A stretch of 10,603 nt of DNA from a virus (Duplodnaviria > Heunggongvirae > Uroviricota > Caudoviricetes): IMG/VR virus record IMGVR_UViG_2711768062_000001; one strand, given 5' to 3'. Both the position numbers and the translations under genes were made by a program. The notes under the pieces were generated by a model that saw nothing but the letters and a program-made list of their open reading frames with translations, was not told where the DNA came from and did no database searches. Positions within the stretch are counted from its first letter, which is position 1; each line of letters starts with the position of its first letter. This document shows, one piece after another, positions 6,493 to 8,964 of this stretch.

Positions 6493-8964
6493 ATGAGTAA
6501 AGTCTTTATTTGCGCCGCTATTCCTGACGAACTGGCAACAAGGGAAGAAGGCGCTGTGGCTGTAGCCACAGCCATTGAAGCTGGCGACGAACGCCGTGCT
6601 CGAGCAAAATTTCACTGGCAATTCCTGGAACATTATCCGGCTGCTCAGGACTGCGCTTATAAATTTATTGTCTGCGAGGATAAACCTGGTATACCCCGCC
6701 CTGCCCTCGATTCATGGGATGCTGAATATATGCAGGAAAACCGCTGGGATGAGGAGTCTGCTTCTTTTGTCCCGGTTGAGACTGAATCCGATCCGATGAA
6801 CGTCACTTTTGACAAGCTGGCCCCTGAAGTACAGAACGCTGTCATGGTTAAGTTCGACACATGTGAAAACATCACCGTTGATATGGTTATTAGCGCACAG
6901 GAATTGTTGCAGGAAGACATGGCAACATTCAACGGACATATCGTTGAAGCGTTGATGAAAATGCCAGAAGTTAACGCCATGTATCCGGAGCTTAAGTTGC
7001 ACGCCATTGGGTGGGTTAAGCATAAATGTATTCCTGGTGCTAAATGGCCCGAAATTCAGGCAGAGATGCGCATCTGGAAAAAACGTCGCGAAGGTGGACG
7101 CAAGGAAACCGGAAAATACACGTCTGTTGTTGATCTCGCCCGCGCCAGAGCCAATCAACAGTACACTGAAAATTCAACAGGAAAAATCAGCCCGGTCATT
7201 GCTGCCATTCATCGCGAATACAAGCAGACATGGAAAACACTGGATGACGAACTGGCCTACGCTCTCTGGCCTGGTGATGTGGATGCCGGAAACATTGACG
7301 GCAGCATCCATCGCTGGGCAAAAAATGAAGTTATCGACAACGACCGCGAAGACTGGAAGCGTATCTCGGCATCAATACGCAAACAGCCTGATGCCCTTCG
7401 CTACGACCGCCAAACTATTTTTGGCCTTGTCCGTGAGCGTCCGATCGACATTCACAAAGATCCCGTAGCACTGAACAAATATATCTGCGAATACCTGACG
7501 ACAAAGGGCGTGTTTGAGAATGAAGAAACAGACCTGGGCACTGTTGATGTTCTCAAGTCATCAGAAACACAAACTGATGCAGTGGAAACTGAGGTATCTG
7601 ATATCCCAAAAAATGAAACCGCACCGGAAGCTGAACCATCTGTAGAGCGTGAGGGGCCGTTCTATTTCCTCTTCGCAGATAAGGACGGAGAAAAATACGG
7701 TCGCGCAAACAAACTTTCTGGTCTGGATAAGGCACTGGCTGCTGGCGCCACTGAAATCACAAAAGAAGAATATTTTGCCCGAAAAAATGGCACATACACG
7801 GGCTTACCGCAAAATGTAGATACCGCTGAAGATTCAGAACAACCAGAGCCGATAAAAGTTACCGCTGACGAAGTAAACAAAATTATGCAGGCAGCCAATA
7901 TCAGCCAGCCTGACGCCGATAAGTTGCTTGCTGCATCACGTGGTGAATTTGTTGAAGGGATTAGTGACCCGAATGATCCGAAATGGGTTAAGGGGATCCA
8001 GACCCGCGATTCTGTGAACCAGAACCAGCATGAATCGGAACGGAACTACCAAAAAGCGGAACAAAACAGCCCAAATGCGTTACAAAACGAGCCAGAAACG
8101 AAACAGCCTGAATCAGTGGCGCAACAGGAAGTGGAAAAAGTCTGCACCGCCTGCGGTCAGACCGGCGGCGGCAACTGCCCTGATTGTGGCGCGGTGATGG
8201 GCGACGCAACATACCAAGAAACATTCGATGAAGAGTATCAGGTTGAAGTTCAGGAAGATGATCCGGAGGAAATGGAAGGCGCTGAACATCCACACAAGGA
8301 GAACGCTGGCGGCAATCAGCATCACGATAGCGATAATGAAACTGGCGAGACGGCAGATCACTCAATTAAGGTGAACGGTCATCACGAAATCACATCCACC
8401 AGCAGGACGTGTGACCATCTAATGATCGACCTTGAAACCATGGGAAAAAATCCTGATGCCCCGATCATCTCAATAGGTGCAATATTTTTCGATCCGCAAA
8501 CCGGAGATATGGGACCGGAATTTAGTAAGACTATCGATCTGGAAACTGCTGGCGGAGTCATTGATCGGGACACCATTAAATGGTGGCTTAAGCAATCACG
8601 CGAAGCGCAATCGGCCATTATGACCGATGAAATCCCGTTAGATGATGCACTGTTACAATTGCGGGAATTTATCGACGAAAACTCCGGTGAATTTTTTGTT
8701 CAGGTTTGGGGAAATGGAGCCAACTTCGACAACACGATTTTGCGCCGTTCATACGAACGGCAGGGGATCCCCTGCCCGTGGCGTTACTACAACGATCGCG
8801 ATGTACGCACAATCGTTGAGCTGGGGAAAGCCATAGACTTCGATGCCAGAACGGCTATTCCATTCGAAGGTGAGCGCCATAATGCACTTGATGACGCCCG
8901 TTACCAGGCAAAATACGTTTCAGTTATCTGGCAAAAACTGATCCCGAGTCAGGCTGATTCTTAA
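6493..8964 (+). CDS. ydfE: YdfE, full-length form (823 aa): N-terminal domain of unknown function, acidic low-complexity linker with a C4 zinc ribbon, C-terminal DEDDh 3'-5' exonuclease domain
   Basis: Uninterrupted 2472-nt ORF with GAGG upstream. The N-terminus [53 protein letters not shown] matches my recollection of the K-12 YdfE fragment. C-terminal motifs MIDLETMG (Exo I), WGNGANFD (Exo II) and [13 protein letters not shown] (Exo III, His variant); zinc ribbon [16 protein letters not shown] at about 8143-8200. Confidence 0.8.
   Translation: [823 protein letters not shown]

Follow-up and report, generated by a model that had tools for sequence, protein, structure and literature searches.

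How does a lambdoid phage use an exonuclease that occupies the place of recE and has no annealase beside it? This question is raised by the gene at 6493..8964 (+) of IMG/VR virus record IMGVR_UViG_2711768062_000001, a stretch of 10,603 nucleotides (nt) from a member of Caudoviricetes, which was analysed as a whole and is called the window below. The window corresponds to the left arm of a lambdoid prophage of the Qin type, inserted beside rspB, and the gene is the intact orthologue of ydfE, which is truncated by insertion sequence (IS) 2 in Escherichia coli K-12. We found that the 823-amino-acid (aa) product is almost certainly a RecE-family scaffold in which the PD-(D/E)XK nuclease has been replaced by a DEDDh tail of the DexA/Rv2179c type. 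The best explanation overall, which we put forward tentatively, is that this protein would trim 3' ends during lytic growth, independently of an annealase, and would thereby feed the host RecBCD/RecA pathway.

The gene and the parts of its product are the following, with the evidence for each in brackets:

6493..8964, + strand: full-length ydfE-type gene, 823 aa (open reading frame (ORF) list; identity of the coding sequence; match to PHROG 2082)
6493..6792, + strand: head domain 1, aa 1-100, small alpha/beta fold (Pfam YdfE_N PF27430)
6805..7167, + strand: head domain 2, aa 105-225, helical, approximately YdfE_C PF27432 (AlphaFold2 (AF2) helices 111-225)
7225..7512, + strand: N2 helical domain, aa 245-340, homologous to RecE aa ~278-350 (BLASTP; phmmer; AF2 predicted local distance difference test (pLDDT) 95-98)
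7534..8412, + strand: acidic linker, aa 348-640, net charge -36, mostly predicted to be disordered (composition; AF2 pLDDT mostly <50)
7654..7791, + strand: ordered island in the linker, aa 388-433 (GPFYFLF...ARKNG), small helical element (AF2 pLDDT 69-79)
7921..7986, + strand: conserved linear motif, aa 477-498, equivalent to RecE 457-478 (AF2 pLDDT 73-77)
8143..8187, + strand: Cys4 zinc ribbon, CxxC-N7-CxxC, formed by C551, C554, C562 and C565 (sequence; AF2 beta-hairpins, pLDDT 81)
8413..8949, + strand: DEDDh 3'-5' exonuclease domain, DexA/Rv2179c-like, aa 641-819 (Pfam; PDB sequence match; Foldseek; residue mapping)

The C-terminal exonuclease domain

A preliminary description of this locus, made from the letters alone, had claimed a DEDDh 3'-5' exonuclease at the C-terminus, and both sequence profiles and structural modelling predict a member of the DexA/Rv2179c family there. 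The Pfam family PF16473 (Rv2179c-like 3'-5' exoribonuclease domain) matches aa 642-813 with 226.4 bits against a cutoff of 27 (expectation value, E, 2.6e-67), and the match covers the profile at full length (positions 2-177 of 177). The only solved structure matched by sequence is that of T4 DexA (PDB 8kel; E 1.7e-6). In the AF2 model of aa 340-823, the domain has a pLDDT of 75-94, and a Foldseek search with it returned DexA 8kel first (E 8.5e-8), followed by RNase T, Cap18 and Orn, all with a probability of 1.0; ERI is also among its structural neighbours. The fold check proposed in the preliminary description thus places the domain inside the DEDD superfamily.

The motifs quoted in that description are all present in the intact 823-aa ORF: the ribbon at aa 551-566, MIDLETMG at 644-651, GNGANFD at 740-746 and HNALDDA at 796-802. 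Residues D646/E648, D746 and H796/D801 align with D7/E9, D119 and H186/D191 of DexA, and these five catalytic residues are kept in most relatives in which the domain is fused. The domain matches 750 phage records, and its family is common among virulent phages. An internal start yielding a stand-alone DEDDh domain was considered and rejected, since no Shine-Dalgarno sequence precedes M644.

A scaffold shared with RecE

The protein had been treated as unrelated to RecE, a view that the central part of the sequence overturns. The NCBIfam RecE model (PRK09709/NF007259, an equivalog) matches aa 246-625 at model positions 271-602 of 877 with 282 bits, the whole protein staying below the equivalog cutoff of 1269 bits, and BLASTP aligns aa 262-625 with positions 278-591 of the RecE of the Rac prophage (E 8e-63, 40% identity). 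Over aa 474-625, the ribbon included, the two proteins are about 85% identical, and the similarity stops exactly where the RecE nuclease domain starts. Since aa 246-625 are homologous to RecE, the protein can be described as a RecE scaffold with the nuclease domain swapped. No PD-(D/E)XK domain (DUF3799, RecE aa ~606-866) was found in the window protein by Pfam, phmmer or tblastn, and it has no match to Exonuc_VIII (PF06630), a family that RecE and the relatives with a RecE head do match.

The Rac gene sits in the same early-left slot, just upstream of xis-int, and shares a homologous N2 and linker with the window gene; the linear motif, the ribbon and the acidic tract are near-identical up to the junction with the nuclease domain. 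The two proteins differ at both ends: the head of RecE is Exonuc_VIII (PF06630), whereas that of the window protein is YdfE_N/YdfE_C, and the tail of RecE is a PD-(D/E)XK 5'-3' nuclease accompanied by a recT partner, whereas that of the window protein is a predicted DEDDh 3'-5' nuclease without recT.

The first 330 aa or so, initially presented as one domain without a name, turn out to be three folded domains, and the families YdfE_N (PF27430) and YdfE_C (PF27432) give names to the head. An AF2 model of aa 1-350, built with 44 trimmed relatives, folds with a pLDDT of 91 into an alpha/beta domain (1-100) and two helical domains (105-225 and 245-340). Both Pfam families were seen in precomputed annotations, and members that have only the head domain 2 part carry PF27432. 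N2 is the only folded piece that all mapped family members share (phmmer, 50%-identity representatives).

Within the linker, the AF2 model has three ordered islands: aa 388-433, aa 458-498 (a helical hairpin together with the linear motif) and the ribbon at 549-569. The first island is conserved in the family members P0124, P0130 and P0152. The linear motif has the family consensus [KQ]LAAxRGE[FY]V[ED]GISDPxDPKW; it persists whether the tail is DEDDh, PD-(D/E)XK or not a nuclease, in spite of the rapid divergence of the surrounding linker. Its carriers include RecE, P0124, P0133, P0248, P0134, P0260, P0266, P0256 and P0259. Because the motif is kept whatever the head or tail, it does not appear to serve RecT, and from its conservation it looks like a candidate docking motif for some partner. 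When the 44-aa linker motif was used as a query, 3 short fragments were retrieved, and no new architecture emerged. The zinc ribbon noticed earlier is real, its spacing being N7 and not N9; it is common to Rac RecE (CNACGQTGGDNCPDCG) and absent from the other family representatives, a pattern that, as far as sequence comparison goes, confines it to the YdfE and Rac-RecE lineage.

Exchange of tails and partner genes in the family

An exhaustive HMMER search with aa 1-350 against 1.84 billion proteins returned only 167 cluster representatives, so that the family is a narrow one, found mainly in enterobacterial prophages; the search for related loci with the whole protein gave only 8 close loci. 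Segments of YdfE and RecE were mapped onto the long representatives, with a Pfam check of a subset. The family has two head types (YdfE_N/YdfE_C or the non-catalytic PF06630), N2 is always present, and at least three types of tail occur: (i) DEDDh; (ii) PD-(D/E)XK (DUF3799); (iii) a tail without a recognisable nuclease. All four combinations of head and nuclease were found:

YdfE head with DEDDh tail: the window protein, P0121, P0124
YdfE head with PD-(D/E)XK tail: P0128, P0227, P0230
RecE head (PF06630) with DEDDh tail: P0133, P0226, P0248, P0254
RecE head with PD-(D/E)XK tail: RecE, P0255, P0260

The preliminary description had proposed to look for a conserved partner gene in homologous prophages, and such a partner exists for one type of tail only. 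All five lineages with a PD-(D/E)XK tail have a recT-family gene after it (Rac RecE, P0128, P0227, P0230 and P0172). Conversely, the DEDDh tail is followed by xis/int in all eight lineages considered, with recT in 0 of 8 (the window, the 813-aa type represented by L005/L007, P0226, P0133, P0248, P0254, P0262 and phage HannyBb). The association of tail with partner gives a Fisher exact p of ~8e-4, a hand-computed value that is uncorrected for relatedness and is based on lineages that are not fully independent.

The claim that the operon contains no annealase gene is borne out by annotation, in which none lies between the exonuclease gene and xis/int, and by a tblastn screen. The references for the screen were five RecTs, lambda Exo, Bet and Gam, the strand-annealing protein (SAP, Sak4-like), SSB and Abc2 of phage epsilon34, and the RecE nuclease domain. 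None of these references, lambda Exo and the RecE nuclease domain included, had a match in the window, in the identical locus (20 kb) or in the whole genomes of the phages HannyBb, mEp460 and Evi; in a Rac-like control phage, RecT and the RecE nuclease were both detected. Thus, among the components of a lambdoid Rec module, no strand-annealing protein gene was annotated or detected with these references, which leave out the Erf and Sak types, and no anti-RecBCD gene matched lambda Gam or epsilon34 Abc2.

Some relatives consist of the scaffold without a nuclease. They sit in the same slot, before xis-int and with no recT, and they bear two further C-terminal tails (loci L044 and L045): those of P0139, P0161 and P0259 match phrog_7838, and that of P0126 matches phrog_26058. 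Neither tail has a sequence match in Pfam or PDB; their motif may resemble Rad52-like annealases, although no such relationship is claimed. The heads, N2 and the linear motif of these proteins are as in the window protein, from which they differ in tails that are not recognisable nucleases; they probably correspond to the 'RecE-2' proteins discussed below (Zheng et al.).

Known proteins that carry the same domain

T4 DexA belongs to the same DEDDh subfamily as the window domain. It differs from it in being a stand-alone protein of 227 aa from a virulent phage, with extra loops and an identity of only about 21-23%. The structure of DexA was solved by Kang et al. 2025 (PMC12153337). Its residues W152 and D169, which are reported to read 5-hydroxymethylcytosine (5hmC), correspond to Y766 and A780 in the window protein, the alignment at D169 having low identity and being less certain; the position equivalent to W152 varies among the fused relatives (Y, W, V, R).

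EcD (HREX), a DexA homologue of E. coli, digests 5hmC-containing T4 DNA and not unmodified double-strand DNA, and protects cells from T4 (PMC12153337). An EcD-matching ORF was recovered by means of the primers given in that paper; it has 189 aa, starts with MIDTET and has A78 as stated there. This ORF is 37% identical to aa 644-819 (E 5e-36), so that the two are closer to each other than either is to DexA. EcD stands alone at 189 aa, whereas in the window protein the domain is fused to a 640-aa RecE-like scaffold in a repressed operon, and the tryptophan implicated in the reading of 5hmC is not conserved there. The recovered 189-aa ORF, which starts MIDTETLGNGPDA..., is found on the IMG/VR contigs L013, L018, L028, L031 and L034, which suggests that the 'bacterial' defence exonuclease EcD is itself borne by prophages or phages.

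A survey of lambdoid Rec modules by Zheng, Casjens, Davidson, Amundsen and Smith 2025 (PMC12315714) recognises four types of nuclease, the DnaQ-like 3'-5' enzymes among them, and mentions 'sporadic' DnaQ-type genes near int, uncounted as Rec-module genes, as well as 'RecE-2' proteins without a nuclease domain. The same survey describes lambdoid phages without a Rec module as Chi-rich and RecBCD-aided. In phage epsilon34, where the gene order is SAP, SSB, exonuclease, Abc2, the exonuclease gp34 is 55.6% identical to aa 640-816 of the window protein. Since this homologue lies inside the epsilon34 Rec module, the nuclease type is one that is used in lambdoid recombination. Both genes belong to lambdoid early-left operons; gp34 is, however, a stand-alone protein encoded among SAP, SSB and Abc2 genes, whereas the window protein is fused to the scaffold and encoded next to int, with no SAP, SSB or anti-RecBCD gene nearby. 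Finally, Rv2179c of Mycobacterium tuberculosis, which gave PF16473 its name, is a single-domain bacterial exoribonuclease of the same Pfam family. The literature searched contains no paper that links ydfE with an exonuclease.

Chi sites in the window and in carrier phages

One Chi site lies inside the gene:

8396..8403, - strand: Chi site (GCTGGTGG)

HannyBb, mEp460 and Evi have it at the corresponding position. The window has 2 Chi sites (8396-8403 and 1465-1472, both on the - strand) versus 0.28 expected, and the genomes of HannyBb, mEp460 and Evi (L058, L059 and L060) have 7, 9 and 15 versus 1.5-1.9 for 8-mers of the same composition. These counts fit the class of phages without a Rec module that are Chi-rich and aided by RecBCD (PMC12315714). 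Chi density as a separator of DEDDh-type from RecE/RecT-type phages was rejected, both being enriched, the latter as judged by a single control genome.

Genomic context of the gene

The other features of the left arm are the following:

4038-4268, - strand: cro/dicC-like gene
4346..4753, + strand: DicA-like repressor gene, head of the leftward arm (Pfam HTH_3; annotation)
5797..5848, + strand: DicF small RNA, between ydfC and dicB as in K-12 Qin (Rfam RF00039, 76.7 bits, full-length match)
6023-6211 and 6208-6399, + strand: dicB (division inhibitor) and ydfD (lysis protein) (annotation of the identical locus; translations)
9037-9288, + strand: excisionase (Pfam DUF1233; annotation)
9308/9323-10603, + strand: tyrosine integrase (Pfam Arm-DNA-bind_2 and Phage_integrase; annotation)

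The window locus is 100% identical to a Qin-site prophage beside rspB. The gene order is dicA-like repressor, ydfA, ydfB, ydfC, DicF RNA, dicB, ydfD, exonuclease gene, xis, int; the exonuclease gene is therefore the last of the DicA-controlled dicB early-left operon, just upstream of xis-int, and lies in the exo/recE slot as had been proposed. A 2024 bioRxiv paper places the dicB promoter under DicA control and lists ydfE only as a pseudogene downstream of it. The order dicB-ydfD-exonuclease gene is kept in HannyBb, 813R8, mEp460, L007 and L040, and across the family the usual upstream neighbour is a division inhibitor, either dicB with ydfD or kilR.

The ORF has an ATG start codon preceded by GAGG at a distance of 10 nt, and a search in front of the gene gave no promoter-like site. 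The 72-nt gap between its stop codon and the start of xis holds a GC-rich inverted repeat at 8976-9007 (CGCCGGTTG ... CAACCGGCG), which has a 9-bp stem, a 14-nt loop and no T-run, and which, judged by its sequence, could be a putative processing or attenuation site for the expression of xis-int. The right arm of the prophage is decayed, and the left arm from dicA to int is fully intact. Positions 1-1770 of the window contain no intact long ORFs, and a methyltransferase fragment lies at 1771-2127; in the identical record (L001 3247-4590), the annotation includes an IS fragment and genes with frameshifts or internal stops.

Distribution and selection

It should be noted that the rarity and the novelty of the gene had been overstated. 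Of 5426 complete E. coli genomes searched with megablast, 3537, or about two thirds, contain at least 80% of the gene, at up to 10 places per genome (6-7 matching places in each of the O157:H7-type genomes sampled), and the gene is already annotated as an exonuclease. The coding sequence WP_021511903.1 ('exonuclease') of a complete E. coli chromosome is 100% identical to the window gene. Many records name the gene 'exodeoxyribonuclease VIII', and others 'exonuclease' or '3'-5' exonuclease'. The gene is carried by viable phages, e.g., HannyBb and mEp460, and the isolated phages HannyBb, PhiR42_1 and Tritos have copies that are 98.7-98.9% identical. A frameshift or misassembly that joined two genes, which the preliminary description had named as a possible artefact, is contradicted by the presence of the same ORF in complete genomes and isolated phages (98.7-100%) and by the PHROG 2082 profile, which is matched from end to end (positions 1-822 of 823).

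The gene is under purifying selection. Compared with the E. albertii orthologue (L047), the ratio of nonsynonymous to synonymous substitution rates (dN/dS) is 0.24 overall, 0.12 in each of the folded N-terminal parts and highest, at 0.37, in the linker. The dS itself is 0.27 in the head (6493-7167) and 0.017 in the DEDDh segment (8413-8949). The very low dS of the DEDDh segment points to recent recombination within the gene, which fits an exchange of modules in the linker.

Across Escherichia and Shigella, some copies are intact and others broken. The earlier statement that the K-12 orthologue is disrupted by an IS proved accurate: the K-12-type copy (L002) ends at nt 767 at an IS2 remnant, just past head domain 2. 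Other independent inactivations include a frameshift in the DEDDh part in E. albertii (L048), a fragmented gene in Shigella flexneri (L050) and IS30/IS600 insertions (L006).

Proposed role and alternatives

Given its sequence and its operon, the protein is, in our judgement, rather likely to be a DNA 3'-end exonuclease used in lytic development. Upon derepression, the exonuclease would be made together with DicF, DicB and YdfD. The scaffold, i.e., the heads, N2 and the linear motif, would localise the enzyme, by analogy with RecE most likely to double-strand DNA ends or to a host protein bound at such ends. There the DEDDh domain would remove nucleotides from free 3'-OH ends by two-metal catalysis, working without a phage annealase. 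The lack of such an annealase is what leads to the proposal that the trimming of tails feeds the host: the 3' single-strand tails of linear phage DNA would be trimmed, and the ends would become substrates of the host RecBCD-Chi/RecA pathway, on which the Chi-rich lambdoid carriers without a Rec module appear to depend. The ends on which RecBCD acts have to be blunt or nearly so, and 3'-5' single-strand DNA exonucleases of the host help to supply such ends. This preference of RecBCD, combined with carriers that are Chi-rich and lack a Rec module, is the reason why end trimming was chosen as the most likely role; the specific task of blunting ends for RecBCD is possible and, taken by itself, doubtful. 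It is a bolder and clearly less probable idea that the N-terminal two thirds of RecE are a targeting platform, with alternative heads, a universal N2, a GISDPxDPKW motif that binds a host hub protein, and interchangeable tails, so that the DEDDh form would be a third recombination strategy.

Several points weigh against the proposal that the enzyme trims DNA ends for RecBCD. PF16473 is named after an exoribonuclease, and the substrate may be DNA or RNA. 3'-5' single-strand exonucleases usually lower recombination by destroying invasive 3' tails (PMC12315714). The negative result for an annealase rests on RecT, Bet and Sak4-like references, the Erf and Sak types being outside the set. The Rac-like RecE/RecT phage, which is one control genome, also has 5 Chi sites. 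Scaffold relatives with non-nuclease tails sit in the same slot, so the scaffold may have a function of its own that is unrelated to DNA ends, and no informative structural relative of the N-terminal domains was found.

The main rival, which we regard as unlikely, is that the gene encodes an anti-phage or exclusion nuclease of the prophage that, like EcD, selectively digests the modified DNA of incoming T-even-type phages and thereby protects the lysogen. It would explain why the gene is kept intact in a Qin prophage whose right arm has decayed and whose left arm has not, and its wide occurrence (at least 80% of its length in 3537 of the 5426 genomes) also speaks for this reading; dicB, moreover, has been reported to protect against phages. 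The C-terminal domain shares the DexA-family core with the EcD-matching ORF (37% identity), and EcD digests 5hmC-containing T4 DNA and protects cells even at leaky expression (PMC12153337). However, the residues reported to read 5hmC are not kept (Y766, A780), no PADLOC model matches, and the gene lies in a DicA-repressed early operon with no promoter-like site in front of it; viable temperate phages carry it in a slot for recombination genes, and the RecE scaffold would be left unexplained. The scaffold is likewise a difficulty for the improbable reading that the enzyme has the other role of T4 DexA, namely, the scavenging of host DNA or oligonucleotides or a general take-over in lytic growth, in which host DNA would be degraded from its 3' ends to feed replication, or the host would be shut down alongside DicB, DicF and YdfD. 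A scaffold of 640 aa shared with RecE is needless for bulk degradation, degradation of host DNA is not known from temperate lambdoid phages, and the strict exchange with the RecE/RecT pair would not be accounted for; what recommends this reading is the membership in the DexA family, the wide occurrence of the domain in virulent phages and a position beside, or co-transcription with, the host-directed toxic functions dicF, dicB and ydfD, or kilR in relatives.

Slightly less probable again is an RNA-directed, Rv2179c-like 3'-5' exoribonuclease that acts on the dicF-dicB transcript or on host small RNAs or tRNAs. Although PF16473 has an exoribonuclease as its name-giver, RNase T, Orn and ERI are among the structural neighbours, and the operon transcript is processed to DicF, the closest assayed relatives (DexA and EcD) are DNases, the scaffold derives from an enzyme of DNA ends, and the stand-alone homologue of epsilon34 is found among DNA recombination genes. 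Two further readings are contradicted and seem to us very improbable. A conventional RecE-type recombinase that resects 5'-3', with an annealase supplied from elsewhere, is what the recE slot, the RecE-like centre and the 'exodeoxyribonuclease VIII' annotations would lead one to expect; it is at odds with the missing DUF3799, with a RecE score of 282 versus 1269, and with the failure to find the RecE nuclease domain, RecT, Bet or the epsilon34 SAP either in the window or in complete phage genomes. The reading of the gene as a functionless remnant in decay, or as two genes joined artefactually, would agree with the many broken copies (K-12, L006, L048, L050) and the partial decay of the window prophage, and is contradicted for the intact copies by ORFs with 98.7-100% identity in many genomes and isolated phages, by the dN/dS of 0.24, by the conserved catalytic residues and by the recurrence of the architecture in distant lineages.

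Implications

What was already known is that the folded parts belong to catalogued families and that relatives of the nuclease domain have been assayed. Not described in the literature searched are a scaffold with swappable tails, the strict loss of recT with the DEDDh tail and the conserved linker motif. RecE/RecT is the workhorse of recombineering, and the role of the first ~600 residues of RecE has never been explained; the same scaffold with a nuclease of opposite polarity and without RecT is a natural 'domain-swap experiment' on the function of that scaffold. If the protein is merely an accessory exonuclease, the gain is a better annotation, which should not be 'exodeoxyribonuclease VIII'. 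Since the gene is among the commonest prophage genes of E. coli, any role in recombination, in mosaicism (including that of Stx phages) or in exclusion would be broadly relevant. The finding also bears on how lambdoid phages without a Rec module manage recombination-dependent replication: if the trimming of ends for the host is confirmed, their strategy would be neither an exonuclease and annealase of their own nor nothing at all, and 3'-5' end trimming by the phage would prepare ends for RecBCD-Chi/RecA.

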